Assembly: GCA_951406725.2 (NCBI GenBank)
Contig: OX597824.1
Span: 53,320,001 to 53,384,000 of the forward strand
Source: Octopus vulgaris
Taxonomy: Eukaryota
Length of the DNA: 64,000 bases
Direction of reading: 5' to 3'
The notes beneath the pieces were generated by a model that did no database searches, had not been told where the DNA came from, and saw only the letters and a list, made by a program, of their open reading frames with translations. Shown here one piece after another: positions 2,421 to 29,581 of the stretch. The position numbers were made by a program, and so were the translations under genes. Positions within the stretch are counted from its first letter, which is position 1. The number at the start of each line of letters is the position of its first letter.

Positions 2421-2780
2421 TACACACAATGCTTTTTTGTTTGTCCGGCTACAAAACATTACATCCTCCAGTCTATATAATATTTAAATTCAAATTCTGA
2501 TTATCTGTATGAATGTTCTTCGTTTTTAGACAAAACACTGCATTGTTCCAATAAAATGTTTCCACCTACGTACTCGTAGACATAAATATTTGTATATAAC
2601 AAACATATAACCAAATTCTCAAAACACAAGAATCTTCTTTATTATTAAACTAAAAATATTACAAAATGTCACCATTTCTGACAAAATCGAAACGAATGCG
2701 CAGACCCAGACATATACATACGAAAATATACATACACACACGCACACACATAGATACTGAAGCCATATATATATATACAT

Positions 2781-2825
<45 letters not shown>

Positions 2826-2907
2826 GGTCCCGGGTTGATTCGGGGTTAACCACAGTAAGAAGGTACTAATACATAGCAGAGTAAAATTAATTTATTATAT
2901 AGAAGGA

Positions 2908-2955
2908 GCTTCTACAGGACTAGTATGTTTCATTCAAGAGAAATCTTCAGGAAGT
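2908..2955 (-). ncRNA. Type I hammerhead ribozyme motif
   Basis: cttc-CTGAAGA-tttctcttgaat-GAAAC-atactagtcct-GTA-gaag; stem I cttc/gaag, weak stem II. Confidence 0.65.
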
Positions 2956-4420
2956 ATTTAACAAGAATTGTATTAGCATTTATATTTAGCAGGTTTAAAG
3001 GAGTGGTGGTGGGGACTTTTGGGGTAGGCATAGCGCAAAATATCATACTTGGGGAGTGGTCAAGGAGTCAGTGGTAGTTAGATGAAAGAATAGATAAATA
3101 AAAAAATAAAAATAAAAATAAAAAATAAAAAATAAAAAATAAAATAAAATAAAAAATAAAAAATAATAAAATAAAAATATAAAAATATATATAAAAAATA
3201 TATATAAAAATATATATATATAAATAAAAAATATATATATAAAAAGGATAGAGTTATAGGTAAATAAGGAGATTCTCACTTATACCTATACACACATGTA
3301 TACGTATCTACACACACATACATACATACACATATATATACACACACACAAAAAAATATATATATATATATATATACATATACATATGTACACACATACA
3401 TACATATCTACATACACACATACATACACCGCCCACATATACAAATTTATACACATGCACATGCCTATACCTGTCTACACATACACACACGTATATATGC
3501 ATACACTCACTCCCATGCATGCACGCATACACACATGTATATATATATATATATATATACCCACGACCACACATACATATATACACATAAAAATATATAT
3601 TCATACACATACACTCATGCACACACACACACCTAGTTCCCTATATACACATATTTACACCTATATATACATACACCCACATACACCTATGTACACATAT
3701 ATATATATAAACATATACACGCATACATATATATACATGTGTGCACATACATACACACACACATATATACATACATACACATACACATGTGTACCTATAC
3801 ATACCTACACATACACACATACATACATACAAATATACATATACATATATATATATACAATCCAATACAGGCCCATTCCCTAATTTTAATTTTATTATCT
3901 TCATTTATTACTTTTGTTATCTTTGATCGCTAGGGCTAAGAATCCTGGCAATGGCTGCATGTCCATTTGTCTGTCTACTAGAAGGCTAGTACTATTCCCG
4001 CACGCACACTCATTAGCACGTACATTCACCCATTCGTACACTCATACACATACACGTACTCACGTTATATTCATACATACAAACATCTACATACGTTCAC
4101 GTATATACACATACGTACTCGTACCTACAGATTCGTGTCTACACTTTAGGAGGCTAGTCTATACATATACACCAATAAATATACATATATATATATATAT
4201 ATACCCGCATTTTATTTTATTTTATTTTATTTTTATTTTTATTTTTTATTTTTATTTTTTTTTTTTTTATTTATCTATTCTTTCATCTAACTTACCACTG
4301 ACTCCTTGACCACTCCCCCAAGTATGATATTTTGCGCTATGCCTACCCCAAAAAGTCCCCCACCACCACTCCTTTAAACCTGCCTAAATGTATAAATGCT
4401 AATACAATTCTTGTTAAATA

Positions 4421-4468
4421 GCTTCTGAAGATTTCTCTTGAATGAAACAGTACTAGTCCTGTAGAAGC
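4421..4468 (+). ncRNA. Type I hammerhead ribozyme motif (inverted copy)
   Basis: gctt-CTGAAGA-tttctcttgaat-GAAAC-agtactagtcct-GTA-gaagc; stem III acag/ctgt around palindromic actagt. Confidence 0.6.
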
Positions 4469-4480
4469 TCCTTCTATATA

Positions 4481-4528
<48 letters not shown>

Positions 4529-5139
4529 TCATACATATATACATACATACACACACACGCACATATACATACACACGTACGTAGAACTCTTAGACATGGA
4601 AGAAAGTCATCCATACGAAAAATAAATGAACCAATACGCACACTTGCGCACTCACACAAACGACTATAACACACATGTAGGTATGAAAACACACACACAC
4701 ATACATGCAGCCAGTCACATGCATGTATGAATACAAGTCTTAGAATATAAAACAAGATAGTGATAAAGGCTAACAGCCATGGATATATAAACTCATAAAG
4801 TGGTAGGTGCCGTTTTCCAATGAATTTCATGAAACCTGGCTTAAATCGACAGAATTGGCTAAATGGAGCAACAACTGGTGGGAAAGATACCAGATTGATA
4901 TAGATTTTAGGTGTGTTGCTTCTTATCATTCTGCTTATTCTTGTTATTTTCGTTGTCGTTTGCTGTTTATATATTATTATTCTCATTGCTGTTAAAGATT
5001 TTCCCTTTTTTACTCCATGGAAATTGCCTTGTTTCGTGTTACGATTTTGTTTTTGTGCAATTCCCAAAGTCATGGCCCTTCTGAATTATAAAATAAAGCA
5101 TTACAATAATTAGGACCATTGTTATTATTGCTGCAGCGT

Positions 5140-5450
5140 ACCGATGTCGATTTTACTTTTCATCCTGTCGGGAACGAGAACCAGTTGAGCACCGGAGTCA
5201 AGGTAATCAACTAGCTTCCTCCCCAAAAATTTCAAGCAAAGTGCTTATAATAGAAGGGATTATTACAAAAGGGTGGTACATAGCAGAACCGGTTAGCAAC
5301 CAAAGAAAACGCTTTGCCGCATTTAGATACGTCCCTTTACATTTTGAGTTCAAATCCCACCGAAGTTGACTTTTCCTTTCATCTTCCCAAAATCAATAAT
5401 TTAATATCAGTGAAGAACCAGTCTCGATTAAATCAATTAAATCACTTAAT
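5140..5450 (+). mobile_element. Two degenerate tRNA-derived SINE fragments (family of 63195)
   Basis: Head ggtggtacatagcagaaccggttagca, B-box-like gagttcaaatccc, core gactttt-cctttcatc. Confidence 0.5.
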
Positions 5451-5590
5451 CTTTCACTACCAAATTTCTGATCTCGTACTTATGTTGCAAATCATTACAA
5501 TTCAAAGTAAGAAAACCACATTTATTATTGCAATAGCAATGCTAAGAATTGATAATTAACAGTGTGGGCTAAATAAGAGCAAGTGAATGA

Positions 5591-5638
<48 letters not shown>

Positions 5639-5900
5639 TAAGCAGAGGACGATTGGAGTTGAAAGGAAGAGGGAAGTTGGAGAAATAAGGCGAATATATT
5701 GATTCTATGGTTTTGATTATAAATCTTAGAATCAGGTCCCTCTAAATCTTGATTAATCATCGTAATGTATCAGTAACATTCAGTCATTCCCTCGTACGCG
5801 TGTGCGTATGTGTGCATATATATGTACATTACATGCAAACATAGTACATGCAAACATATACATATACATCATGTATATATACATATATACATAGGTATAC

Positions 5901-6006
<106 letters not shown>

Positions 6007-6145
6007 GTTTCTGTGTGTGTGTGTGAGTACTAATATACGTGTGTGTGAAAATTTTGTGTTATACGCCGATCAATAATGTAAACATTGTCAATATCAAATA
6101 TTTAATATATGTCTCAGAAAATGCTACACGTCTACAGCATTTCGC

Positions 6146-9220: not shown

Positions 9221-11454
9221 TGTTCTTTCCTTCTTTCTTCAAATTTTCTTCCGTTTCTCGCCCAGTGTTTTCCATACACCTAGGGCAGAGAAGCTCATTG
9301 TATGCATTCCCAGACTACATACGCAAATTCACAGATAAAATATGTATTTAAAAATTAATAAATAAATAAATTCATGGATGGATGTTGTTTTCACAGCGAT
9401 AATGCTCTTCTCAGTACATGAGCCGTTCCAGTTAATACGATTTTTTGCACTTCCTGTAGGGATGGTAAGCCTGGAATCATTTTCAAATAGGTTTCAGTAA
9501 CTTTTTTTATCATTCCTAGAGATCCTACAATCACTGGTACTGTAGTCGCCTTGATATGCCACATTTTTTCAATTTCTATTAGCAGGTCTTTATATTTACT
9601 AATCTTGTCAAATTCTTTCGCCGCTATATTGTGATCGCAAGGGATACTCATGTCAATTAATACACACATCTTTTTTGTCTGATCTTTTATAATAATATCC
9701 GGTTTATTAGCTTTTATAGTCTTGTCGGTCTGTACAGGGAAGTCCCATAGAATCGACACATTTTCTCCCTCAGTCACAGCTTCAGGATGGTATTTATACC
9801 ATTTGTCAGCGGTTTTGATTTTATAATACCTACATATTGTCCAATGTAAATACTGGCCGACTCTGTCATGTCTTGCTTTATATTCTGCAGGTGCTAAGAC
9901 TCTACACCCTGAGATTAGGTGGTCTATTGTTTCAATCTCATCGTTACAGAATCGGCATTTTGGGTCAGCTCCATTTTTTACCACATTGGCTTGGTAGTTC
10001 CGGGTTAATAAGCTTTGGTCTTGAGCAGCTAATATGAAACCTCCACTCTCTGCTTTTAGCCCTGAGCTTCGTAACCATTGGTGCGTGTGTTTCTGGTCGA
10101 CATCAGCTTGTTTGCTACGGGTCACATACTTGCCATGGAGAGGTTTCTGTTCCCATCTGCTAGCTAAATGTTCATGTGCTTTTGTCTTTGCAATTAATTT
10201 TATTTTCTTTGCAGCTGCAGTTGGCGCATTTCCTTCAGCCTGATCAATCTGGTGGGTATCTAAGAGATCAGCAGCGAATTGTTTGCTCTCTTTGAGAATA
10301 GAGTGAAGTTTTTTCGGTCTTTCATGTTTTTCAACAAGTTTTAGCATCCAATCGTTGGTTACTTCAAGGTATTTGGCCAGTCCGATTGTGGTGGTTTTGT
10401 ATGTAAGTTCAAGCTGGATCAAACCTCGACCTCCTTGAGCTCTGGGAAGGTAAAGGCGATCCACGTCTGCCTTTGGATGGTGCATCTTATTACAAGTCAG
10501 TAGCTTGCGGATTTTTCTGTCAATTTTCATTATTTCACTGGTATTCCAGTTAAGCAAATTGAAGCTATAAAGAACAACTGGTACTGCTAAGGAATTTATG
10601 GCTAACACCTTATTATATACATTCAGCTCAGATTTCAGGACAGCTCGAACTTTTCTATAGCATTCCTTCCTAACCTTCTCTTTCATGCTTGCATGTTCCT
10701 GCTCAAGTTCCTTTATTACTGTTTCGACATCTAATTCGATTGAACTAGACTTTACCAATTTCCCTTTCTTAAAAGTGGCTTTGGCACACTTTTCAAGGAC
10801 AAACTCCATCCCGATATCATCACTGAATCCTTTCACGGTATGTAATAATCCTTCAAGCCATTTTTTTTTGGCATATAGCTTTAAATCATCCATATAAAAT
10901 AGATGGCTTATTTTCCTGTTGTCAATTTTGTAGCCATATCCTGTTCTATTCAGTTCACTTGAGAGTGGTATTAGTTCTATGCAGAAAATTAGTGATGAAA
11001 GTGAGTCACCTTGGAAAATTCCACAGTTTATGCTATTGTTGCTTGAGCGCAATTCTCCATTAGAATGATATAATTGGAGCTTCGTGTTCCATAGTGATAT
11101 ATTATACTTTAAAAAATCTGAAATCACAAGAGAAATTTTGAAAATGTCCAGCGATTTCAGAATCCACGAATGCGGTATGCTGTCAAAGGCTTTTTTATAA
11201 TCAATCCATGAAGAGCTGAGATTTCTGCGCTTGTTATGGCAGTTCTCAAGGATCATGCGATTAATTAGGAGCTGATCTTTGCATTCGTATGAGCCTCGTC
11301 TGCATCCTTTTTGTTCAGTGAGAAAGAGGTTATTCTCTTCCATAAACGTATATGTTTTCTCTACTAGAATAGATGTCAAAATCTTATAGGTAGTAGATAA
11401 ACATGTCTAGTTTTTGGTTCTTTCGTTTTGTTATTTTGGGGGAGGAGGTAAGTA
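9221..11454 (-). mobile_element. 5'-truncated R4/Dong-clade non-LTR retrotransposon in an (ATT/TAA)n repeat
   Basis: RT + zinc knuckle + RLE ORF; (ATT)n abuts both ends (9186-9220, 11455-11551); Dong elements are known to target (TAA)n. Confidence 0.85.
9391..11379 (-). CDS. Reverse transcriptase with C-terminal CCHC and PD-(D/E)xK restriction-like endonuclease (partial)
   Basis: EQKGCRRGS, IDYKKAFDS, GIFQGDSLS, FYMDDLKL, CRFC..ETIDHLISGC, RHD, KPDIII..IDMSIP..KISKY; the expected YKYLG motif is absent. Confidence 0.9.
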   Translation of the reverse strand: MTSILVEKTYTFMEENNLFLTEQKGCRRGSYECKDQLLINRMILENCHNKRRNLSSSWIDYKKAFDSIPHSWILKSLDIFKISLVISDFLKYNISLWNTKLQLYHSNGELRSSNNSINCGIFQGDSLSSLIFCIELIPLSSELNRTGYGYKIDNRKISHLFYMDDLKLYAKKKWLEGLLHTVKGFSDDIGMEFVLEKCAKATFKKGKLVKSSSIELDVETVIKELEQEHASMKEKVRKECYRKVRAVLKSELNVYNKVLAINSLAVPVVLYSFNLLNWNTSEIMKIDRKIRKLLTCNKMHHPKADVDRLYLPRAQGGRGLIQLELTYKTTTIGLAKYLEVTNDWMLKLVEKHERPKKLHSILKESKQFAADLLDTHQIDQAEGNAPTAAAKKIKLIAKTKAHEHLASRWEQKPLHGKYVTRSKQADVDQKHTHQWLRSSGLKAESGGFILAAQDQSLLTRNYQANVVKNGADPKCRFCNDEIETIDHLISGCRVLAPAEYKARHDRVGQYLHWTICRYYKIKTADKWYKYHPEAVTEGENVSILWDFPVQTDKTIKANKPDIIIKDQTKKMCVLIDMSIPCDHNIAAKEFDKISKYKDLLIEIEKMWHIKATTVPVIVGSLGMIKKVTETYLKMIPGLPSLQEVQKIVLTGTAHVLRRALSL

Positions 11455-11925: not shown

Positions 11926-11969
<44 letters not shown>

Positions 11970-12391
11970 TAGCATTAAAGACCCGTCGTTGCCGGGTCAT
12001 AGTGCTAGTGCATGTGTATATGTGTATATATATGTGTACATATTACATGTACATCTATATATATACATCTACACATAAAATGCAAAATACAAAGTTATAT
12101 CTTGATATCGCTAGTGATAGCAATACTCAAAATATATAACAGACTGGAATTGTTTTATTATTACCCACAAGGGGCAAACATAGAGGGGACAATACAACCT
12201 GATGTGGGGTCTGATTAACGAATGGGTTTACAAAAAAAGGCGAATTTAAAACTTTACAAAAATTACAAAAATATTAAAAATTGAATGAGGAACAGACCGG
12301 AAGACATCACGGATGGAGTGGGAGCGGGTTTAGCTCGGACCCCACGAGCCCCGCCTCCCTACTGATACTTTGGTTTCGTCTAGTTTTACAT

Positions 12392-15300
12392 TTATGTGGG
12401 ATCATCCACTCGCAACTTTCGTGCTACATCTTTCCATCGTTCTTCGTACACTCTCTTAGTCAGGCATTTTCTCTCCAGCCCTATCTTCCTTTTCAGGTGA
12501 AAGATGAAGTAATTCATCAAACCAGGGCCGGAGATGAACTTGCCTGACCGTAAACCTTTCATTCTCGTCTTCCATATCACCTCTTTCGCAATTGCTACTA
12601 CAACGAGAAAACTATTATTACCTTCTTTCGCGAGGAAATCTGGTGGGTCAATTTTTGTAATAGACTCAGTCGACAGCTGTACTCTTCGTGTGCTTGACAA
12701 CAGCTGTTCGGCGTAAACCCACACCTCTGACACGACCGAACAATGAACAATAGCGTGCGGGACGGTTTCCTTATCCCGCTCGCATCTTGGACATATCGGA
12801 CTGTCTTGGCCACCGTGCCTTGCGAGTTTATCCCGAACAGGTAGAGCTCCTCTGTAGCATTGCCATGCCAGAGACTTCTGGAAGTTGTCCGGTGTCTTCG
12901 GCTCGAACGTACGTCGGAACAGACTGGCCAGCTGATTATCGTCGAGACCTAGGGTTTCAAGGTATCTTCACATTCCGCCTCTACCAACCATCTATAGAAG
13001 AATGTGGTGGAACCCCCACCGCAGGCGTTGCCCGAGCGACAGAATAGCAGGAGAGCCTTGCGACACTCCGTGTACCATGTGCCCAGTTTCGATCTACGAT
13101 TCAGCCAGGTTTCCCATCCACCGAAACTAGTGAACTTGGGAAACATCAGTTTTGCTAGCGGAGACCACACCCGTTCACCATCCAGGTAGAGCCACAGATG
13201 TCTTAACATCAGCGCATGTCTGCGCATCATCAGCCAAGGCATCCCTAGCCCACCCTTTAACGGTTGTTGACAGCAAGTAGAGCGTTTCACAAGTGGTTTC
13301 CCGCCCTTCCACAAGAAGTAGAAGAGTTGTCTTTCCAACTTGATCAACCACGAATCAAGGCAAGGAATGACGGAAAGGCGGTAGGTGATAACCGATGCGA
13401 TAAACACATTGGCTACCTCCGCCCTCCCTTTCAGGGATAGCCACCGCCAAGATCAGGTCTTGGTTACTGCAGCCACCCTGCTCGATACCTCGCCCCAATT
13501 CTTCTCTATTTGGAGGTCTGGACCGAACCAAACCCCTAGCAACTTAATCGGACCCTCCGTCCAACGTCCCACGACGCTGTCAGGAGGCATCGACTTGCCT
13601 CTCCAGGTGCCGAGTTGCAAGCCGACTGACTTTTCACGATTAACCTTTGCTCCTGTCACCGTCTCGTAAACCTCTATGGCCTTGCTTACCCTCTGTAGGT
13701 GGTCCATTTCGGTTACGATGATGGTGATGTCATCCGCGTACGCTGACACTGATTTTCCACAACCTGGCTGTCTCGGGATGCCGCTCAGTTTTCGCAGTAA
13801 TGGCTCAAGAGCCATCACGTACAAAAGCGGGGAGAGCGGACACCCTTGACGAACCGAGCGATTGATGTTGAACGGCTTCGACAAAAACCGTTCACCCGAA
13901 CTACCGAGTCGATGTTGTCGTAAATTTAGATAATCCACCTGAGGAAGCCAAGGCCCAGCCCGAACTGTGCCAGGGCAGATACCAGGTAGCGATGGTCGAC
14001 CCTATCGAATGCTTTAGTTGGTCTAAATGGACCAGTGCCCCACCCTTGCCAGAATCACTATTAAACCCCTCTATAGTGTACCGCATAAGATGGAGATTAT
14101 CCTGAATGGTTCTGCCGGGAACGGCACTTGTCTGTGCCTCCCCGATCAGACCATCCGCGACACGCGCTAATCTTTTCGATAACACTTTGGCCAAAATCTT
14201 CAACTCTGTGTTTAGCAGAGTGATGGGCCTGAAATTATCAATGCACTCCCCCTTGCTCGGGTACTTTCTGACGAGTTTCACTACTCCCCGGCGCACAGAT
14301 CTGGGTATGAACCCGTTCTGCTGCCAGTTCGTATAGACCTCCGCCAGTAGGTGCCCGAACAAGTCTGGCATACTCTTATATAACTCATAGGGTAGACCAT
14401 CTAAACCCGGCGCCTTGCCCGCGCTGCAGTCCACCATCGCCTCAACCACCTCCCCAGGCGTGATTGGCCCTTCATAGCCCTCCGCATCTCGCCCCGATAA
14501 GCGCGGCAGCCCGTCGAAGAGGTCCGTAAAGGCCCTCCTCCTATCCAGTCCGCCGCACTCACCGAAAAGCTGAGCGAAGTGCTCCTGAAAGGCCTCACAC
14601 ATCTCCTCGGGCTCGTTTATCAACTCACCTTGTTGGTTCGTCATAGATCGAATCGTGGCGTCGTTACCACGCTGAGCTTCCACCACTCGGGCCCATCTCA
14701 CGGCGTTGATTCCTTCACAACCCATTGCGCGGATCCTAGCCCTGACAATGCAGCCCATGTGTTTGGCCTCGAGGTGCTGGTTTAACGCCAGTCTCTTGGC
14801 CGTCACCTGAGTCGCAGAGCCAGTTTTCAAGGCTTCCTCTAATTCCTTAACTAGAGTAGATTCCCTCCTAGCCTCTCTAGCCACTAATCCTATGCTATAT
14901 CTAATAGACTCGAATTTGATGGCTCGCTTGAGGGCATACCACCATTTGTTATTAATGATGGCACCAGATAGCGCCCTCTGAATTATAGTCCTAATCCGGT
15001 CTCTGTACTCCTTAATCGCCAAAAGGGACGTATTAAGTTTCCAGTAACCGGAGCCTCTATTTTTAACCTTATCTATGTCAAGCTTACAGGTGACCATTTT
15101 ATGATCACTGTAGCTGACCAGGTAAAACTGTGGACACTTAGCTATTTTTCTGTCTACTTTTCTAATTAGTATCCTATCTATGTATGACCTGGAAGATCCG
15201 TCGCTGTTTGACCATGTCCACAATGGAGCGTTCGGAAATTCCAACCTATAAGGATCTGCTAGCTCAAAGCGGCTTAGCAGTTCCAGGAAGCCAATGTTAC

Positions 15301-15781
15301 CTTTTCTATCTGGACGCAAGCCAACACAATCTACATCCGCTTTGCAAATTGTGTTAAAGTCTCCTAGCACAACTAATGAATGCGAAGTACCAAGAAAGTT
15401 TTCCAGTTCTCGAAAATAATCACTTTGCCCTTTTTGGTTGGGTGCGTAAATTGCAACCAGTCTGATAACTTTACCGTTACTGAACGTCAAATCCATGACG
15501 ACCAGCCTACCTTCTGGGTCTGAAAAAATTAACTTTTTCTCAAAAACCCGGTTTCTTTTTAATAGGACCAACACCCCACCCACGCCTGTAGGACTGGCCG
15601 GAGAGAAAAAACACTCGTAGCCGTCAAACAGCGGGAGTAGACCTCTTGGCCCCTCTAACCGGGTTTCTGTAGCAACAATAACATCCAAATTACGCGACCT
15701 GATATCATTAAGGAAGCGACCTTGCTTCCAGCTTGATCCCAGGCCGCGCACATTTAAACAACCAACATAAATGTAATCCAT
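12392..15781 (-). pseudogene. ORF2: APE endonuclease, reverse transcriptase and C-terminal zinc finger
   Basis: LNVRGL, TETRL, IYAPN, GDFN, SYIDR, SDHK, KAPGLDGLP, NFRPITLLN, RQGCPLSP, AYADD, CPRC..ETVPHAIVHC; frameshifts at ~14015 and ~12955, in-frame TGA at 13453. Confidence 0.92.
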
Positions 15782-15789
15782 GACTTACC

Positions 15790-17086
15790 TTATATCAGTG
15801 GTTCGACTTTTCCTTTCTCTTCTTCATTTTTTTCCTCTTTTTCTGGGCCTCGTGGGGGAGTCTGACGCAGGCCCTCGAATATATATGGTGATAATATATC
15901 CATTCTGAGAGGGCCCACGTCATGAAAAAATTCGGACTTTATCCGTCCGTAATCCTTCCGGCCTATCCTGTACAATATGAAATCGGTTTTTTTAAAAAAT
16001 TTTTCTACTTTGGCCATAGCTGCCAACACATCAATGAGTCTATTATTTGAGGCCTTAATGGCCATAAATGAGTTTAATGTTTCTCTTTTTTTCTTTAGGC
16101 TTACTTTCGGAGGGGTGGTTTCAGTTTTTCTTTTTTTCCTAGTGATTTTTGACCACCCCTCCTCATTTTTCGTTTCCTCGCTTTTTGTTTCTTTTGTTAC
16201 TTCCGCCGCTGATTCCGTCACCTCCTCACCTTCAGTTGTCCCTTCTGGGCTGTCTGGCGTTGTTTGTGGTGACACTTCTTCCGTTTTTTTATCTGGCTGA
16301 GCTGCTTCCTGCGGTTTGGGTTGGCATTCTGCCCTCACATGCCCTTTCTTTCTGCAGCCGAAGCACCTCGGCTTTCTACCCTCCACAAAGACCACGACTC
16401 TTTCGTCCTCACTGATTTTCAGTGTCTCCGGTATATCTTCGAGGGTTTGTATCTCTGCCTGTATGGCCATCGAGATACGCTGCCCTTTTCAATGTTCCTC
16501 CTCTTCTACTGTGGCCCGGAGGATGTTTATTTTATCCTCCAGGCCTACCATAACTGCTGCCACCAGACATGTGGCGTCCGCTTCTGGCGGAATATTATTT
16601 ATTGTTATTCTTGAGGTTCTTTTGCCTCTATACAGGGGGAGGAGAACAATATTCTCTGCTTTCATAGGTTCCGTAGATAGCTTTTTGGCTATTTCCTCTG
16701 TTTCAAATCTCACCTCCACTGTACCGTACTTTTTCCCGCGATTAATGTAAGTGATCTTATTCCAAATCGGTTTCAAGTAATTTTCGATCTTTTTTTCTTC
16801 TATTTTTTGAATAGACTTGCTTGTAATATTAAATGTTTTGTATATGATTCTTTTTTTTTTCAATTTCTTCTTGTTTTGGGGCATTCGTAAACACCGTTAC
16901 TTCTGTGCCCTCTTTTTTAAAACATTCTGCGTATTTCTGCAGGTTTTCTGTGTCGATATTTTTAACTTTCTTTCCGGCCACTTCGGAAAATTTTCTAGCT
17001 GGTGCTGGGGTCTCTTCTATTCTCGGCGACACCGCCGGTGATCCTGCATCACTTGACACGGGTGAATAGGAGATGGGGGAGTCCAT
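15790..17086 (-). pseudogene. ORF1: gag-like nucleic-acid-binding protein with CX2CX4HX4C knuckle
   Basis: Three consecutive ORF pieces; CFGCRKKGHVRAEC; frameshift in the A-run at ~16855, in-frame TGA at 16489. Confidence 0.85.
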
Positions 17087-17340
17087 CTCCGAAAACTGGC
17101 TTAACAAGCCTTTAGCACAACCGCGACAAAAAGCTTTTTGTTTTGCAAGCCTCAAATGCAGCAATAATGATAGTTTTTCCCCCACGGAGGGGGGAACACC
17201 AACACGAAGCCCTCGCAAGAAGGCTGATTACAATAATTGTACAACAACAGACAATACAGACAAAGTCAACAGTATTTCAAAAACACAGTAGAATATAACA
17301 GAGGAAAATATAACTCACTACGCAATGAAGACTGCAATGA

Positions 17341-19189
17341 TTTTATTACTACCCACAAAAGGGCGAACATAAAGGGGATAATACAATCGGGGAACTTAAA
17401 ATAAGAAAGCGAATGACAAGAAAAGGGAAAAATAAAAATAATAATGACATATGAAAGAATATTTACAATAAGATCCCCGGAATCAAGAGGTTACATATTC
17501 GTCACATATATTTCACCAAATTTTCTTTTTTCTCTTTTTTTTTTCCTCTCACAATTCTATACATCTTCTATAATTGTTTCCACTTCTCTGAAGTCCATCA
17601 CTGAGTCCTCAAGTAGCCGCTCTCTCACTCGAACCTTCGTGTAAAATATTACACTCTCTCCGGCAGCTCTGAAGAACTCAGCGGCACCTTCCTCGGGGAT
17701 TAGAGCAGTCTCCTCCCACCGGTCGGTCATCCTGTTGACCCATATATGTCCCTCCGTTTTACTTGTTAATTCACTCATTTCAGGGCAGAAATGGTAGGTT
17801 ACTAACTTATAGTAATAGTAATCTTGTTTCCGTCCTGCGTTTTCCTTCATCTTCCTTTTCGGGCTTATTTCTTCCTTGTTCTCCTCTCTTTGATTCTCTC
17901 TTTCTCTCTTTTTGTTTTCTCTTCTTTCTTTTTCCTTCTCTTGTCTTTTTGGCTTTTTGTCTGTCGTCTCTCTACCCTGTGCCTTATGTTCTTTTCCTGT
18001 TGTTTCTTTTTCTTTTCGTGCACCATCTTTTCCTTTCTCTTGCTTCTGTTCCTTCTCTTGTTCTTTCCCTGTTTTCTCTCTTTTCTTCCAGTGTACCCTC
18101 CCTCTCCTTCTCTTGATTCTGTTTTGGTTCTTTCTCTATTACTTCTCTACCCTGTGAACTCTGTTCCTCTTCCATTAATTTCTTCCCTTTGATTTCATTT
18201 TCCTTCAGTGTGTTGTTATTTCCTTTCTCTTGTTGTTTCACCGTTATATCCTTTTCCTTGCTTTCGCTGTTCTTTACTTCGTGTTCTTTTTCCTTCTCTT
18301 CTTTGTTCTCTCCACCCTGTGTCTCTCCCTGCTCCATTTCCCCTTCCGCTGTGAATTCATATAGCGGACACTCCCCTCTTATGTGTCCTCCTGACCCACA
18401 CAAGTAGCAGTTCGGCCTTCTCCCCTCCACAACTACGCTCATTGTTCCCTCACTTTCAAGTTCAATTTGGAAGGGAAACCCTTCCATGTCTTCCTCTGTG
18501 GCCATCAGCCACATCTCCACTCCGAATCCCCTCCAGTTCACAACACTGGTCTCCCTGATCGAGCCCATTTCCATTTCATCCCTTGCCGACCCCAGGATAG
18601 CTGTTACCAGCATTTCCGTTTCTATTTCTGGGGGCACCCCTGGCATCTCTACCTGAACCCCCCCTCGTCCCTCACATGTTAGCCACATGGTGAAGCCTTC
18701 AGCCTTCAGTAACCGTGGAAGCCACGAGGCCGCAACCTCCCCCGTTGCGCATCTCACGTCCACCGCACCATACTTCCTTCCTCCGCTCACGCACGTTGCC
18801 CCTTTCACAATGTCCCCCAGACACTTCTCAATCTCCTCCATCACTACTCTCACCAATTCCTCTGCAATTCTGTCCCGCGTCCTGCACGTGATAGTCCTAC
18901 CATTCCTCTCCTCCATCGCTTCAGCAGGCGGGACCAGCCCCACGCTGTCACCCTCCCCCCTGATGAACCTTTCACAATCCATCAACTGCTCCTTTCCAAA
19001 GAACACCTCTCCCACCATAAGAGGCTCATCACTCCTCGTAGCGGCGACCCCCGCGCAAGTCTCCATGACTTGAGGGTCGACGCACCTTCTATAACAAGGT
19101 TCCAACACGTGGCGGCAAGCGCCTCACGCGATTCAACCTATTTTTTCAATTTAACTGTTCACACAAAAAACAACTAACCAACGCAATGA
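17341..19189 (-). mobile_element. ORF1-only non-autonomous LINE (half-L1-like, element B)
   Basis: Same 5' nonamer TCATTGCGT and ~45-nt 3' tail as element A; single ORF1 homologue; no EN or RT. Confidence 0.8.
17984..19108 (-). CDS. ORF1-like protein with zinc knuckle (continues frameshifted to ~17557)
   Basis: GRKYGAVDVR, VPPEIETEMLVTAIL and VVVEGRRPNCYLCGSGGHIRGEC align by eye with element A ORF1. Confidence 0.8.
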   Translation of the reverse strand: MLEPCYRRCVDPQVMETCAGVAATRSDEPLMVGEVFFGKEQLMDCERFIRGEGDSVGLVPPAEAMEERNGRTITCRTRDRIAEELVRVVMEEIEKCLGDIVKGATCVSGGRKYGAVDVRCATGEVAASWLPRLLKAEGFTMWLTCEGRGGVQVEMPGVPPEIETEMLVTAILGSARDEMEMGSIRETSVVNWRGFGVEMWLMATEEDMEGFPFQIELESEGTMSVVVEGRRPNCYLCGSGGHIRGECPLYEFTAEGEMEQGETQGGENKEEKEKEHEVKNSESKEKDITVKQQEKGNNNTLKENEIKGKKLMEEEQSSQGREVIEKEPKQNQEKEREGTLEEKRENRERTREGTEARERKRWCTKRKRNNRKRT

Positions 19190-19760
19190 AGACTGCAATT
19201 GTTATCTCTTCTTTTTTTTCTACGTTGTATACTTTATAGACAATAGTCTTTTCTTTAATTTATTTTTTTTATTATCCATCTGGACTATTCCATTTCTGCA
19301 CGCTGATTTTATTTTTATTTAATTCCCATTCATGTGAAACCACTTATTCAAGTTCAAATCATTGATGCAATTTTATACCAATTGCTGTTTTTACTTATAT
19401 TATACTTTAGTTTGATTTTAATTATTACTTACTACATATAATTCAATTGTTATTATTATTTTTATTGTTAAAGTGAAAACATCTGACATAAAATAGAGAA
19501 ATATTTTTGTTTCACTTTTAACACGTAATACTGAAATAGTGGAGATGATATGATATTGCTATGGGCTCGCTCTAGGCAAGAAGTTTCCCATGAAACTACA
19601 TGGACTCTAAGTAAGGCATGTGTAAAATTTGAATGAAATTGATTGTGTAGTTCTCAAGTTTTAGGGAAACACAGACAGACAGACAGACAGGCAGACAGAC
19701 AGACACACACATTCTCAGTTTTATATATATAAAGATATATATATATATATATATTTATAC

Positions 19761-19824
<64 letters not shown>

Positions 19825-19826
<2 letters not shown>

Positions 19827-20807
19827 GACGGGTACCACTGGCGGTGAACTGGCATGCATTTGCGTATTGTGTGTGTTGGTATTGAGTATGTGTTTGTGTG
19901 TGTGTGTATATGTGTGGGTATTGTTTATGTAGTTCTGTAGTTTCCGGATGTGTGTTTGTGTGCATGTGTGTGTTGCATTTGTGAGTGATTTGTTATGTTT
20001 GGTTGTGGTTGTAATGTGCGTGTATGTTTGTTTTTTCCTTTTGAATGTGAGTGTGTGTGTGTGATATTATTACTGGGTTTCGAGTGTATTGTGTGCATGT
20101 GTGTACAGGTGTGCGTAAATGCGTGTGTGTTTGTGTGGGTTGTGATGTAGTTGCGTGTTTATGTATCTGTATGTGTGTGTGTGTGGTTTGTTTGTGTGGA
20201 TTTGGTTTGTAATTTCGGGGTGGTGTGTCTAGGTGTGTGCATGTCCGTGTTCACATGTGTATATATGTGTGAAGGTGTTGGTTATGGATGCTAAAATCTT
20301 ATTGCAAGTGTATCTATGTATGTGTTTTTTCCTGGGATTTGTGAGGGTTTGTGTTCTAGTGGGAGGATATTGTGTTTGTGCAAGTGTATTTGCGTCGGAG
20401 GTTGGCATTGTTTTTATGTGTGTGTGATTTTGTATATCTGTATGTATTTCTGTGCGTGTTTGTTTTGGATGTGTGCCCGGGGGGTATGTTAGAGTATGTT
20501 TAGTTGTGGTCTGTATTTTTAAATAAGATTATTTTCTCTATTTATTCGTGTTTGGTCTGTGGTGTTGTTCGGGCATTGGTATAGTCGGGAAACTAAGAAT
20601 TTGGGGGACTTATTGTGTGCACAGAGGTCTAAGTGTCCACTAAGTGGTATCTGTCTTGTGGTGGGGTCCCTCCGTTGTTGGCGATGAATTGTCATCCTTT
20701 CTCTGAGGGTAAGGCTCACACCATCCTACCAAATTTTAAAAACACACATCTATTTACACCACAATGGATCCTGGGACCAATCAAAAACGGCCCACACACA
20801 CAAACAC

Positions 20808-20850
<43 letters not shown>

Positions 20851-20944
20851 AAGACACACACACTCACACCATTTTGACCCCCATACAGACGCACATATAC
20901 ACACACATGCGCACCCACAGCACCATGACAAATGCCAATCACGC

Positions 20945-20975
<31 letters not shown>

Positions 20976-21790
20976 AACACATGTATATGTATATACACAC
21001 ACACAAAGACACACACACTCGTACCATATATACGCACACACACAAACATACTCAATACCAACACACACAAAACGCATACACACATACACACACACACGCG
21101 ACACAGATACACCCAACATACATGAACACACATACGAACAAACACATACATACACTAGAGCACCCGCAACACACTAACAAACATTAACCACACACACATA
21201 CATACATACATACACAAACGGGCACACATATACACACACCATCCTACCAAATTTTAAAAACACACATCTATTTACACAACAATGGACCCTGGGACCAATC
21301 AAAAACGGCCCCCACACACAAACACATGTATATATATACACACACAGACACACACACACTCACACCATTCTGACCTCCATAAGACACACACACATGCACA
21401 CACACACAGCACCATGACAAATACCAATCACGCACATACATACACACACACAACACCAAGACAATCACACACATGGTTGGCAAACGGGCACACATATACA
21501 CACACCATCCTACCAAATTTTACAAACACATACAGACACATCTATTCACACCACATATGTATATGCACACATACAAAGACACACACACTCGCACCATTCT
21601 GACCTCTAAAGACCAATCCCCCAAATCATTGATGCTTGAAGGAGAGACAAAAAGAAATTCTTTTCAGTTCCACATTACTCTTCCCTCCCCCCACCCAAAC
21701 ACACCTACAGTGTCCCTTGAAAAAGAAAATAGTCTTTTACGATAACATGGTGGACCAGGTCAGTTTAAGCTACCCTACTACTATAATGTA
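19825..21790. repeat. Unclassified composite repeat: TG-rich arm, unique core, tandemly duplicated CA-rich units
   Basis: cacaccatcctaccaaatttta recurs at ~20717, ~21235 and ~21501; 19860-19910 is the reverse complement of ~21028-21080. Confidence 0.55.
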
Positions 21791-22342: not shown

Positions 22343-23830
22343 ATCCCTTCCCAAAATACATAAACCCAATAACCCTGACCGCCCTACTATTGTTTCTGCC
22401 TATAATTGCCCCACTGAACTCATTTCCAAATACCTTGACCGTATCCTGTCCCCTTTAGTTGCTGCCCTTCCATCCCACATATACGACACTAATCACGCTC
22501 TTCGCTTCTTCAATTCCTTTTCCTTCTCTCCCTTTTCGTCCCCTCACACCTCCTCTTCACCTTGGATATCAAATCCTTATACACGGTAATTCCCCCACAA
22601 CGACGGTCTCTTAGCACTCCAATACGTCCTCGACCGTCGCCCTGACCCCACACTCACCACTCCACCCTTCTTCGCCTGGCAAAACTCGTCCTCACCCTCA
22701 ACTACTTTACGTTCGCCGGGTAAACCTACCAACAATGTCTGGGGTCGCGAAGGGAACGAGAATGGGCCCCAATTTCGCCAACCTATTTGTTGGTCACATT
22801 GAGGCCCAAGCATGCTCCCAATTCTCCGGGCCAACCCCAGAACTATACGGTCGCAACATAGACGACTGTATATGTGCCACCTCCCTCTCCCGTGAACAAT
22901 TCTGCCACTTCATCTCTTTCCTCTCTAACTTCCACCCTTCTCTCCAATTCACTTCTACTATCTCTAACACCTCGGTTCACTTCCTTGATATCTCTCTTAC
23001 CACCTCCGCCTTCTTCAAACCTACTCTCTCACCACCTCTGCCTGCCCACTCTCTCACCACCTCCGCCTTCTTCAAATCCCCAGATTCCCACCTCTACCTC
23101 AACTTCTCCTCTTCCCATCCCTTCCACACCAAACGGGCCATCCCCTACTCCCAGTTCCTCCGCCACCGACGTTTGTGCAGCCGGGACCAGGATTTTGAGA
23201 CTCAGTGCCAGTACCATACCCGCCTGTTCATGCATCGAGGATACCCCTCAACCCTTATCCAAACTGCCCTTGCCAGAACTCGTCGAATCGATCGCACCAT
23301 CTCTCCTTCCACACACCAACCCCCTAACCGCACCCTCTTTACCCTCCTTTTCCACCCCTCCACCCTATCCCTTTGTCGGAGGATCCAACGGGCCTTCCGT
23401 CGTCTCCACCTCGATCCCACCACCCGCTCCATTTTCCCCAACCCACCCTTGTCCTCCTTTAAACGCACCTGGAACCTAAGCGATCTTCTGGTCCGTAGCA
23501 CCTTCTCTCCCGTCCCCTGGATCCTTCCCGTGCTTCAGATCCCGCTGCCACACCTGCCCCTTCATCATCAACACTACCTCTCTCACGGGTTCCAATCAGT
23601 ACACTCTTCGCATCACAAATTCCTTCTCTTGCACCTCTTCTAGCCTCATATACTGTATTAGATGCAACCTCTGTGGTAGACTATATGCAGGTCAGACGGG
23701 CCGTCGACTGGCCGACCGGTTCACCGAACATCTAAGGGATATTAGGCTACGTTCGAACATCCCAGTCGCCTGTCACTTCCGCTTGGTCAACCATTCCCCT
23801 CTGAGATTTCAGTCTTTGGCCTCGCTCTGC
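22343..23830 (+). pseudogene. PLE reverse transcriptase and GIY-YIG endonuclease
   Basis: LPKIHKPNNP, GVAKGTRMGPNFANLF, RNIDDC, FLDI, SSHP..AIPYSQFLR, RGYP, LIYCIRCNLCGRLYAGQTGRRLADRFTEHLRDIR; frameshifted. Confidence 0.88.
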
Positions 23831-24738
23831 ACCACGCACACATAACACACACACGTACATATACACACACACACGAAAAATACACGCACCCGTGCACACA
23901 CATGAACGTACATATACCTCCCACACACACCACACACATACATGTACATAGACACACACATACTTCCACACACATACGCACACGCACTTACACACGCACA
24001 CACGCGCATACACGCAGACACACACACACGCACTCACACACGCATACATACACACACACATATACCCACGCGCACAAGATTGCACCGATGCCACACAACC
24101 CCACGATGCCACACAACCCCACGAACACACAGACACGCACACCTGTATACACACACACGCACACATAAACGTACACACTTACACAGAACCATATACACAT
24201 ACATACACAAACACGCGCATACACGCAACAAAACGCACACATAACTCAACACACATCTCCCCGTTCACACACACATATACACACGCACGCACATACACAC
24301 ATGCAGACACACACATACACACACACACGCACACACACATATACACACGTACATACACACACATACGCACACTCGCACATGTATGAACACATACCTCCCA
24401 CACACACAACACACTCTCATACAGACACGCAGACAATTACACACAACCTCACGCATACACACATACTCACACATACACACACACACAGACACACCCTGCA
24501 CACAAAACACATACACACACACAACATATAAATACACGCACACACACATACTTCAAACTACCAGATAAACAACTTTCTACTTGCCATTCTCCTACGCACG
24601 TGTATAGGAAGACACACAACAGACAGCCACTCCTACCAAAATTCTTACTATAAATTCTTCCTACGACCTTAAGCGATACTAAATGCAACCACACATATAC
24701 ATAAACTGCCGCAATCACACACACATACACGTGCTATC

Positions 24739-27098: not shown

Positions 27099-27675
27099 CG
27101 ACACCCCACCCACAAACCCCCCGCCCCCACCGTTCCCTCAGCACCCCCAATTACCTTCTCTCCTAAGACAATTCACATTGTATGTGTACACATGTATATA
27201 TGTATAGATATGTATGGGTGGAGGTATGAATATACGTATGTATGTGTGTGCGTGTATTTACATGCGTGTATATATATGTATATGTATATATATGTGTATA
27301 TATATGTATGTGGATATATATATATGTACGCTTGTGTGTTTATGTATATGTAGGTATGTAGATTTATGTGTATGTGTATGTTTGTAGGTATATATATATA
27401 TACATATGTGTAAATAGGTATACATGTGTATGTTTATATGTATGTATCCGTCTGTATGATGGGTAATTGCACGTATATATATTTATTATTTATTATTTGA
27501 GTATGCATGTATGTATATATGTATATGTTTGTATGCATGTATGTATTTATGTATATATAGATGTGCGTGTGTGTGTGTATGTGTATGCATATGTATATAC
27601 ATATGTATACATTTATGTATGCGTATGTGTGTTGGTGTATATATGTGTATATATGTGTATTTGTGTGCGTTCGTG

Positions 27676-27740
<65 letters not shown>

Positions 27741-27847
27741 ATATATGTGTGTATATGCCTGTATACCTCTGTGTGGATGTATGTATGTATATGGGTGTGC
27801 GTACGGATGTATATGTATGTGTATGTAGATGTGTGTGTATGTATATG

Positions 27848-27890
<43 letters not shown>

Positions 27891-28181
27891 ATATATGTGT
27901 ATGTGTATATATGTGTATATATGTATGGGTATATATGTGTATATGTATGTATGTATGTGTATGTATGTATGTATATGTATGGACTTGTTGGGTTTCATTT
28001 CATATATGTAGATAGATGTGTGTGCGTGTATGTGCGTAGATATGCGTATGTGTATTAGTATGTGCATGTGTATATATATGTGTATGTATATGTATAGATA
28101 TATGGATGTATGTGTATGTAGGTATGTATATGACTGGTGTAAGTATATATGTGTATGTATATGTAGGTATATGCGTGCGTG

Positions 28182-28226
<45 letters not shown>

Positions 28227-29030
28227 GTATATATATGTATATGTATATATATGTGTGTATATATATATATATGTGTATATATATGGACTAGTCTTCTGTG
28301 TGTGTGTAGGTGTATGTATGTGTATGCGTGTAGATATGAATTTGTAGGTACGTGTACGTATGTGTATATACGTGCATGTATGTATATGTATGTGTGTAGG
28401 TAGATATATGTAGGTATGCTTTTATGTACACGTGTATGCGTGCATGTGTGCTAATATGTACTTAAAGGCGTATGGATGCGTATATATGCGTATGGATGCG
28501 TATATATGCGTATGTATGCTTATATGCACAAATGTCTGTATATAGGCATATGCGTCTATATATGCGGGCAGATGTTCATGTGTGTTTATGTGTACGGAAG
28601 TACATTTATATATGTGGTTTTGTGTGTACATAGTTATATGTGAAAGTCGGTACACTTATGTATGTATGAATATAACACGTGCGTCTGTGTATGTGTATGA
28701 GTGTGCGTGTGAGTGTGTGTGCGTGTGTGAGTGTTTGTGTTCGTATCAGTGGGAAGAAAGATAGAAAGGAAGGGAGAGGGGCAATAAATGGATTCTTTAG
28801 GCCAGCTAGGCTAGATCCCTTGGGAGAACCCTACTTCAGTGCCGGCCTGGTTGGTGGAGGTCAAAATAAAAATAAAAATAAAAATAAAAATAAATATAAA
28901 AATAAAATTAAAATAAGGGAAGAAATGTGTGTGTATGTGTGTGCATGTATATGCATATGTATGTGTATGTATATATGTATGTATATATATATGTATATAT
29001 ATATATATATATATATAAGTGTGTGTATGA

Positions 29031-29063
<33 letters not shown>

Positions 29064-29297
29064 GATATAGATATGTGAGCGTGTGTGTATGGGGGTGTAT
29101 ATCCTCTTTTATATTTGTTTTTATATTTATTTATTTATATATATATGTGTGTAGATATATGTGTGTATGTATGAGTATGGGTATGGGTGTGTACGTAGAT
29201 GTATGTAAATGGGGGCATATGTACATGTGTATATGGATGTATGTGTGTATGTGTATGTATATATGTATATATATATATATATGTATATATGTGTATG

Positions 29298-29328
<31 letters not shown>

Positions 29329-29581
29329 ATATGTATGTGTGTGTGTATATGTATATATATATATGTATAAGTGAGAGTCTCCTTATTTACCTAAACTCTA
29401 TTATTCTATTTATTCTTTTATCTACTTTATCACTGATTCCTTTGACCACTCCCCTAAGAATGATAGTTTGCGCCATGCCTACCCCGAAAAGTCCCCCACC
29501 ACAACAAAACGACCATGGGCTCCTAGGGAGCGTTTGTTCGAATAGCTTGCTGCGCATTTGTTTGGAGATTTAAATTCCTGG

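Follow-up and report, generated by a model that had tools for sequence, protein, structure and literature searches.

The window analysed here is a stretch of 64,000 nucleotides (nt) from Octopus vulgaris (assembly GCA_951406725.2, contig OX597824.1, positions 53,320,001 to 53,384,000), and all positions given below are counted within it. Two retroelements, B and A, lie head to tail on its minus strand at one site of a high-copy Helitron-like repeat of about 725 bp, with a 10-bp duplication at each junction. Element B runs from 19189 to 17339 (1,851 nt), starts with TCATTGCGT and ends in GTAGTAATAAAATC. It carries a first open reading frame (ORF1), and the Pfam search revealed no family match to endonuclease (EN) or reverse transcriptase (RT) in it. 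B is considered, with good confidence, to be a dead copy of an ORF1-only non-autonomous long interspersed nuclear element (LINE) family, likely mobilised in trans by the ORF2 protein (ORF2p) of the L1/Tx1-like elements to which A belongs. The features are summarized in Table 1.

Table 1. Positions of elements B and A, of their parts and of the host repeat in the window
Feature	Position	Strand	Remark
Host repeat, 5' part; starts A|TCTTTATATATA at 19735, TATAAAG 39 nt before landing site	19200..19735	-	
Upstream copy of target duplication, ATTGCAGTCT	19190..19199	-	
Element B, ORF1-only non-autonomous LINE copy, 1,851 nt	17339..19189	-	
B 5' untranslated region, begins TCATTGCGT	19067..19189	-	
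Sense-strand A-to-G cluster, B nt ~100-800	18390..19090	-	comparison with relatives
B ORF1 first frame, ATG to stop, 360 amino acids (aa); register with intact relatives lost at ~18078-18090	17984..19066	-	
Two predicted RRM-like units, aa ~58-215	18422..18895	-	low-confidence model
CCHC zinc knuckle, CX2CX4HX4C	18368..18409	-	read in sequence; Pfam
B ORF1 second frame, rest of K/E-rich linker and ~100-aa C-terminal domain, stop 17557-17559	17557..18135	-	
~52-nt 3' tail kept in A-type and B-type elements, ends AATAAAATC, without poly(A)	17339..17390	-	
Middle copy of target duplication, ATTGCAGTCT, between B and A	17329..17338	-	
Element A, L1/Tx1-type LINE, 5,178 nt, ORF1 and APE-RT-zf-RVT ORF2	12151..17328	-	
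Downstream copy of target duplication, ATTCCAGTCT, after A	12141..12150	-	
Host repeat, 3' part; ends in hairpin, then CTAG|T	11969..12140	-	

Elements B and A and their shared termini

A single frame change in the A/G-rich linker divides the ORF1 of B, and the two resulting open frames (17984-19123 and 17557-18135) overlap there. The ATG at 19066 opens the first, and the remaining linker and the C-terminal domain are read in the second. The split is attributed to a single frame change because the intact relatives, of which seven ORFs were read, run through both parts as one protein of 465-498 aa. The preliminary description, made from the letters of the window, had given B a length of about 1.85 kb, two complete ends and no EN or RT, in accordance with these results, although its start at 17341 misses the final two bases. 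It does not mention the frame change, the host repeat with its duplications, the A-to-G excess or the mosaic make-up of B.

The zinc knuckle of B ORF1 is canonical; the Pfam zf-CCHC score is 16 bits for B and 22.9 bits for an intact relative (cut-off 20.8). ORF1 of B and of the A-type elements are collinear homologues of 27-28% identity (tblastn E 1e-19 to 1e-27), and the C-terminal domain of B has no counterpart in A-type ORF1. No Pfam match to an RRM was obtained in B ORF1 or in the intact relative. The AlphaFold2 (AF2) model of aa 1-260, built on a 10-row alignment and having a mean predicted local distance difference test (pLDDT) value of 53.7, shows two beta-alpha-beta-beta-alpha-beta units. 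The top matches listed by Foldseek in the PDB were all tandem-RRM proteins (IMP3, U2AF65, HuD), with E from 2.7e-5 and TM-scores of only 0.2-0.44. RRM-like units thus have modest support as a predicted feature. The divergent ORF1 with RRM-like and knuckle motifs that had been read earlier is therefore upheld for the homology and the knuckle, and to a modest degree for the RRM. The sequence search of B ORF1 against the PDB gave only a weak match of the knuckle (E 0.28), and the search for homologues outside this genome, conducted near the protein lengths concerned, gave only 8 proteins, all of them source-named Octopus vulgaris, a result that does not speak against homologues elsewhere.

A lies directly downstream of B, and both its ORF1 and its ORF2 are broken by frame changes in this copy. 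Pfam places Exo_endo_phos, RVT_1 and zf-RVT in the ORF2, and phmmer aligns its aa 4-589 collinearly with residues 7-601 of human L1 ORF2p (E 1.3e-37). The ORF2 architecture thus points to an L1/Tx1-group LINE; the Tx1 label is provisional and would follow from the putative Type I ORF1, the target specificity (PMC4494074, PMC5203782) and the L1-Tx1 class listed for O. vulgaris (PMC13282606). The EN domain of this A is 98-99% identical to that of other A copies. The A-type EN search scored 143 matches, all of at least 90% aa identity, and about 60 of these (hand count) stand in ORF2 frames of 1,128-1,134 aa; active-looking helpers are therefore plentiful. Some A-type elements stand in tandem runs of 5.28 kb.

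The comparison of B with A by blastn revealed only B nt 1804-1849 (46 nt, 87%) and two weak stretches of ORF1 of 27 and 38 nt. The common 5' end is about 9 nt long and reads TCATTGCGT in the window and TCATTG(A/C)GT more generally. This 9-mer occurs 2 times in the window, exactly at both 5' ends; the chance expectation is 0.47, and a count of 2 was reached in 11 of 100 shuffles. Taken by itself, the count is weak evidence of a shared 5' end, and the 9-mer carries weight because of its position and its recurrence across the genome. For the 3' end, an alignment of the terminal 100 nt of 104 units (16 representatives) showed a block of about 52 nt kept in A1, A2 and all B subfamilies. The block ends in AATAAAA followed by TC in B types and by CA in A types; upstream of it the two types are unalignable, and none of the units compared has a poly(A) tail. 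The statement that B shares only its termini with A is thereby confirmed; the shared parts measure 9 nt (5') and about 46-52 nt (3').

A-to-G changes and mosaic make-up of B

The private changes of B were analysed at positions where five relatives agree. A>G accounts for 64 of 92 changes and T>C for 1, and the A>G changes cluster in nt 100-800. The base at -1 is G at 3 of 64 edited sites and at 147 of 388 unedited A (5% vs 38%). Clustered, strand-specific A>G with depletion of 5' G is the signature of ADAR, and genomic records of hyper-edited retroelements are known in mammals; the octopus belongs to an animal group known for heavy RNA editing. The scar in B shows the same pattern as the ADAR-edited mammalian copies, here in an octopus non-autonomous LINE, and is likely to stem from RNA editing, judging from the substitution pattern. 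The signature implies an RNA intermediate.

A mutational bias acting on DNA, or an artefact arising from which relatives were chosen, is an unlikely source of the excess. It is favoured by the fact that no unedited full-length sister is at hand, the closest relative (L002 unit 1) covering only nt 404-1849, and that ancestral states had to be taken from several relatives as B is mosaic. Against it stand the comparison with that closest relative alone, which gives 94 A>G among 175 differences and 11 G>A, the 64 A>G to 1 T>C where five relatives agree, the clustering and the depletion of G at -1. The control focal copies are also free of skew, both the four of five with 12-21 private changes and the more divergent L008 unit with 174. 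A large sense-strand A>G excess appears in B against each of six relatives; against the closest full-length ones, B shows 150-159 A>G and 48-50 G>A beside 20-21 T>C and 25-28 C>T, and it is alone in the A>G skew among 102 units compared.

With the A>G sites left out, the identity of B to the L003 type is 94-97% across most of nt 1-1350 (86-91% in two windows of 150 nt), and its identity to the 5'-truncated sister L002 unit 1 is 96-99% over nt 600-1800. Its C-terminal domain and 3' untranslated region are of the L008/B2 type. B matches different relatives by region and is thus a recombinant of two ORF1-only lineages. The early impression of a clearly divergent ORF1 therefore holds towards the A-type protein (27-28%), whereas within the B family much of the divergence is A-to-G editing and mosaicism. 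This copy cannot supply ORF1 protein (ORF1p) because it is frameshifted and hyper-edited.

The ORF1-only family and its landing sites

ORF1-only units of 1.76-1.93 kb are numerous in the genome and present on most large contigs. The genome searches scored the best candidates only, and the counts below are to be read in this way. The protein query with the C-terminal domain scored 150 of 226 candidates, 42 of the 150 matches lying in open frames of at least 418 aa (hand count). The query with the N-terminal part of the B3 type likewise scored 150 matches, the largest open frame among them being 509 aa. The DNA query with B gave 53 matches among 349 candidates, in classes that span nt 54-1849, 1-1340/1381 and 466-1849, and many of them are head-to-tail neighbours. 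Runs with a period of 1.78 kb form chains with about 22 members on C7 and 8 each on C22 and C1. The numerous copies of about 1.85 kb and the target duplications that the preliminary description proposed to test for are both found, the latter as a 10-mer at the junctions that occurs once in empty hosts.

The element that follows the B-type C-terminal domain was identified at 30 loci: an A-type ORF1 at 18, another B-like unit at 8, nothing recognisable at 4 and EN/RT at 0. A second set, starting from the B-like N-terminal part, also gave EN/RT at 0 of 30 loci. Three ORF2 matches in this set are 3' parts of other elements, being the 3' ends of preceding elements at two loci and a 5'-truncated ORF2 fragment past the unit's own tail at the third. 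No ORF2-bearing parent was thus found behind a B-like ORF1 at 60 loci.

The descent of ORF1 was analysed by a maximum likelihood tree of the RRM-to-knuckle region with 15 rows. Six B-like ORF1-only sequences form one clade (100/100) with a stem length of 1.1, apart from seven ORF2-linked ORF1s that represent lineages with EN 38%, 50%, 77% and 90-100% identical to A. Another ORF1-only type groups in a clade distinct from these; B itself is flagged for its long branch and deviant composition. There are therefore at least two ORF1-only lineages, and the B lineage diversified without ORF2. The NG86 (Nei-Gojobori) dN/dS on the seven intact ORFs is 0.13-0.21 and holds between subfamilies (dS >0.9) as well as within B2 (dS ~0.14), where all copies are ORF1-only. 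Purifying selection on ORF1, which the preliminary description had asked about, is thereby borne out.

The result is not in accordance with B being a recent internal-deletion derivative of an unsampled full-length LINE with the same ORF1, which is regarded as improbable. Bipartite non-autonomous LINEs usually arise in this way (PMC5786205), deleted and chimeric elements do occur here, and the restriction of the searches to the best candidates leaves room for such a parent. Nevertheless, EN/RT stands behind the B-like ORF1 at 0 of 60 loci, and no frame above 509 aa was met among the 150 N-part matches scored. The B clade is deep and internally diversified with all members ORF1-only, dN/dS is about 0.2 among copies that all lack ORF2, and the C-terminal domain is absent from A-type ORF1. 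The contrary case that had been named, B as a single deletion derivative, is not what the searches show. At the level of the family, an independent non-autonomous lineage that would supply its own ORF1p is supported by abundance, selection and a clade of its own, whereas the copy in the window is frameshifted and hyper-edited.

The commonest B2 variant has a 424-aa open frame with a 379-aa ORF from an internal Met (aa 88 of the 466-aa form). At L172+L173 (C7:13509001-13529000, minus) and L171 (C26:13921001-13931000, minus), other ORF2 lineages, with EN 38%, 50% and 77% identical to A, were seen in the same chains. An internally deleted element there links EN to the C-terminal end of ORF2, and in a chimera the RT region runs straight into a B-like linker and C-terminal domain. 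The chimera and the deleted element are evidence of template switching or recombination among families. Contigs from runs (RNA or DNA) under three organism labels cover a B2 unit (L122:1700-3700) at 90-99%; the family may be common to related species, or the organism labels may overlap.

The host repeat extends in the window from 19735 to 11969, with B and A inserted in it. A first search with the sequence upstream of B gave 1,575 candidates, put at 90-95% identity; the 40 full-length matches that were scored range from 90 to 100%. Thirty host copies were fetched. Six are occupied, and the empty ones comprise 22 of the short form and 2 of the long form. The empty copies carry a single ATTCCAGTCT, the 22 short forms reading ...CTAACA-ATTCCAGTCT-GTTATATATT..., and the 10-mer is a target duplication because empty hosts have it once. 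An element-borne origin of the 10-mer was considered, as the B copies have G where the host has C and the 12-mers at the second site vary, and it was rejected for the window on the same ground. B is flanked by a perfect duplication, both copies being ATTGCAGTCT (read G), while the copy downstream of A reads C.

The hallmarks of Helitrons are a 5' TC, a 3' CTRR after a short hairpin, insertion between A and T, and absence of terminal inverted repeats. The host starts with TCTTTATA, A preceding the 5' TC in 17 of 18 copies, and ends with a GACCCG..CGGGTC hairpin and TTTAATGCTAG, T following CTAG in 16 of 16 copies. It shows the terminal features of a non-autonomous Helitron-like element and is so classified from its sequence. 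The repeat is often inserted in (TA)n. The Rfam scan of the whole window gave no family at threshold, so that the landing target corresponds to no known RNA gene.

A second landing site, the home of the long chains, reads ACATGGAGGAAA|GCACC. It lies in a scrap of about 300 bp homologous to the ORF1 RRM region, which is carried by a long Helitron variant (L037, L050; L126-L127, C22 chain end); the Helitron therefore spreads a piece of the LINE gene that LINEs target. The two landing sites each start 39 nt downstream of the TATAAAG of the host, which suggests that the host may provide a promoter or fix where the nick is made. The second site is used by A-type elements of the 90-92% EN group and by B2 units, and helper and partner subfamilies therefore pair by site. 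In the 12-mer at the junctions of this site, seen in chains on C7, C22, C1, C9, C13, C19 and C23, the middle five bases vary between chains, sometimes stepwise within a chain (C9), and the most downstream copy is always canonical. Neither a simple target duplication nor an RNA-borne leader fits all cases of this variation.

The frequency with which B-like units and A-type elements adjoin could also indicate one composite element that moves as a single unit with B as its 5' module. An A-type 5' end follows the B-like unit at 18 of 30 loci, and the same 10-mer stands at the junction. The reading is very improbable, as the neighbour varies between A-type, B-like and none, and chains of 3-8 B-like units end in host sequence without A. 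Chains without any A-type member exist (C22, C9, C19, C1b), and ORF1-only units therefore land alone rather than as passengers of A. In B itself the 5' end is complete, a separate 3' tail is present and the flanking duplication is perfect, and the hyper-editing of B beside an A whose EN is 98-99% like that of other A copies makes one shared RNA unlikely. DNA-level tandem duplication or unequal crossing-over instead of repeated retrotransposition is equally hard to credit as the source of the pair and the chains, for in spite of the identical junctions and recurring 339- and 379-aa ORFs of the C7 chain, B and A are unrelated except at their termini, the strand-specific scar of B needs an RNA stage, units of the same structure occur on many chromosomes with different junctions, and 5'-truncated copies exist (for example L002 unit 1).

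Unequal exchange may nevertheless enlarge some chains. The stretch C7:100086001-100136000 (L121-L125) holds about 22 ORF1-only units of 1.78 kb and then one A-type element. About 14 consecutive units of it have an identical junction, with ORF lengths of 339 and 379 aa recurring, and some growth of this chain may be by block duplication.

Elsewhere in the window, a 671-aa open frame (9391-11406, minus) carries RVT_1 and a weak zf-RVT match and, as far as the two were compared, is unrelated to A. It represents a piece of another LINE, situated past an (ATT)n run immediately downstream of the Helitron. Very dense (CA)n, (TA)n and related microsatellites (2700-6100, 19750-21600, 23700-24400 and 27100-29400) take up much of the window and yield spurious long ORFs.

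Proposed mobilisation, related systems and significance

In the proposed mechanism, the A-type ORF2p would recognise the shared tail on B-family RNA, nick the host repeat at a fixed place and reverse-transcribe from the tail without poly(A). The family's own ORF1p, with its putative RRM-like units and CCHC knuckle, would package the RNA. In the window, A would have inserted first and B later in the duplication copy beside the upstream arm of the host, which would give the head-to-tail pair. Before its reverse transcription, the B RNA would have undergone hyper-editing by ADAR, and this copy was probably defective from the time it inserted. The shared tail and the shared target are used here by the same logic as in pairs of LINEs and short interspersed nuclear elements (SINEs) and in Tx1-Mar/SINEU.

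Several points weigh against mobilisation of an ORF1-supplying family in trans by A-type elements. The proposal draws on the shared tail and the shared landing sites, and the order of A then B would fit the G in both copies flanking B and the C in the copy of A, a single mismatch. The dN/dS values come from ORFs selected as intact, which introduces a mild bias. The ORF2 lineages met in the best-scored candidates number only four or five, and a rare full-length B-type parent may exist. B2 copies with a disrupted N-terminus have spread widely, which weakens the case for supply of ORF1p in cis. The family was found in no run recorded as RNA; run contigs on a B-family unit, for which the kind of run (RNA or DNA) is uncertain, break at the high-copy tail and are uninformative on transcript ends or expression. 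In the tail, single-sequence folds are not better than those of shuffles (z -1.17 and -0.73), and a weak 8-bp hairpin with a double change at one pair is all that was obtained. RNAalifold gave -4.96 kcal/mol, of which -0.17 is covariation, and the covariation is uninformative either way on structure because the tail is nearly invariant. The tail as a structural signal is unsupported, and its primary sequence is what is conserved.

Bipartite non-autonomous LINEs that retain ORF1 are described from three clades, as HeT-A (Jockey), HAL1 (L1) and Ag-Sponge (CR1) (PMC5786205). B shows the features of this class, with an ORF1p homologue lacking EN/RT, termini shared with the autonomous element (at the 5' end only about 9 nt) and amplification as a family of its own. 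Like HAL1, it keeps the 5' and 3' parts and the ORF1 of an L1-group LINE, has lost ORF2 and is presumed to use an autonomous ORF2p. It differs in having a putative Type I ORF1 (predicted RRM-like units and a CCHC knuckle) where HAL1 has Transposase_22, a specific tail of about 52 nt without poly(A), and a strict target inside another transposon. In addition, B-type units form chains, and several diversified ORF1-only lineages stand in a clade of their own. Type I ORF1p (RRM and CCHC, in the scheme of Khazina and Weichenrieder) is typical of Tx1-like elements (PMC5203782).

The ORF1-only members among the telomeric Jockey elements of Drosophila (HeT-A / TART / TAHRE) depend on the ORF2 of co-resident families, and ORF1-only lineages among them were recently described to give rise to further ORF1-only lineages (PMC13534243). 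The octopus system resembles them in its probable dependence on ORF2 from elsewhere, in head-to-tail arrays and in ORF1-only lineages begetting ORF1-only lineages. It differs in belonging to L1/Tx1 instead of Jockey, and its arrays stand at hundreds of internal sites in a Helitron-like repeat with no host function apparent.

Tx1L targets the piggyBac-type Tx1D in Xenopus, and Tx1-Mar and SINEU target Mariner-N4_AMi in crocodilians; the shared target of the latter two was the argument for trans-mobilisation, and tandem partners sandwich a duplication via sequential insertion (PMC4494074). The likeness to the octopus system is close, as a LINE provisionally assigned to the Tx1 group sits at a fixed place in a non-autonomous DNA transposon with a partner at the same target. 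Two preferred sites are used by different families, and a duplication stands between tandem partners. However, the octopus partner encodes an ORF1p whereas SINEU encodes no protein, and the host is Helitron-like and not piggyBac or Mariner, with chains of up to about 22 units.

The repeat annotation of O. vulgaris from 2026 reports 13 recently active L1-Tx1 families (PMC13282606). The term 'ORF1' has 0 occurrences in the main text of that paper, and its supplements, which stand outside that count, may list the families concerned. The literature searched contained no account, for octopus, of Tx1-type elements with ORF1 only or of the Helitron that they target. The kind of element is known (HAL1, HeT-A; Tx1 in DNA transposons) and the combination is new.

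A wider picture, offered tentatively and with more doubt than confidence, is a three-layer consortium in octopus genomes of Helitron pads, L1/Tx1 LINEs homing to the pads and ancient self-perpetuating ORF1-only lineages, with ADAR as a brake. If it were true, the Helitron would spread hundreds of identical pads, each with a TATA box 39 nt upstream, and the ORF1-only lineages would have co-evolved with different LINE subfamilies, sharing the tail and two landing sites. The polar chains of up to about two dozen units would be an interstitial counterpart of the HeT-A/TART telomeres of Drosophila, and ADAR hyper-editing would act as the brake, leaving scarred copies such as B.

The family explains tandem repeats of about 1.8 kb that repeat pipelines would label as L1-Tx1 fragments or satellites, and it also accounts for a class of octopus gene-set entries named 'uncharacterized proteins'. 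Non-autonomous LINEs that code for a protein are rare; the relevant passage of PMC5786205 names only HeT-A, HAL1 and Ag-Sponge. The octopus system adds a case from the L1/Tx1 group with many young intact-ORF copies, a short invariant tail and a precise high-copy target. Long-standing questions thereby become testable, such as what ORF2p recognises on the RNA, whether ORF1p is required in cis and by what route head-to-tail arrays lengthen. B preserves the trace of a retrotransposon RNA that was likely hyper-edited before integration, which points to editing as a possible restraint on retrotransposition.

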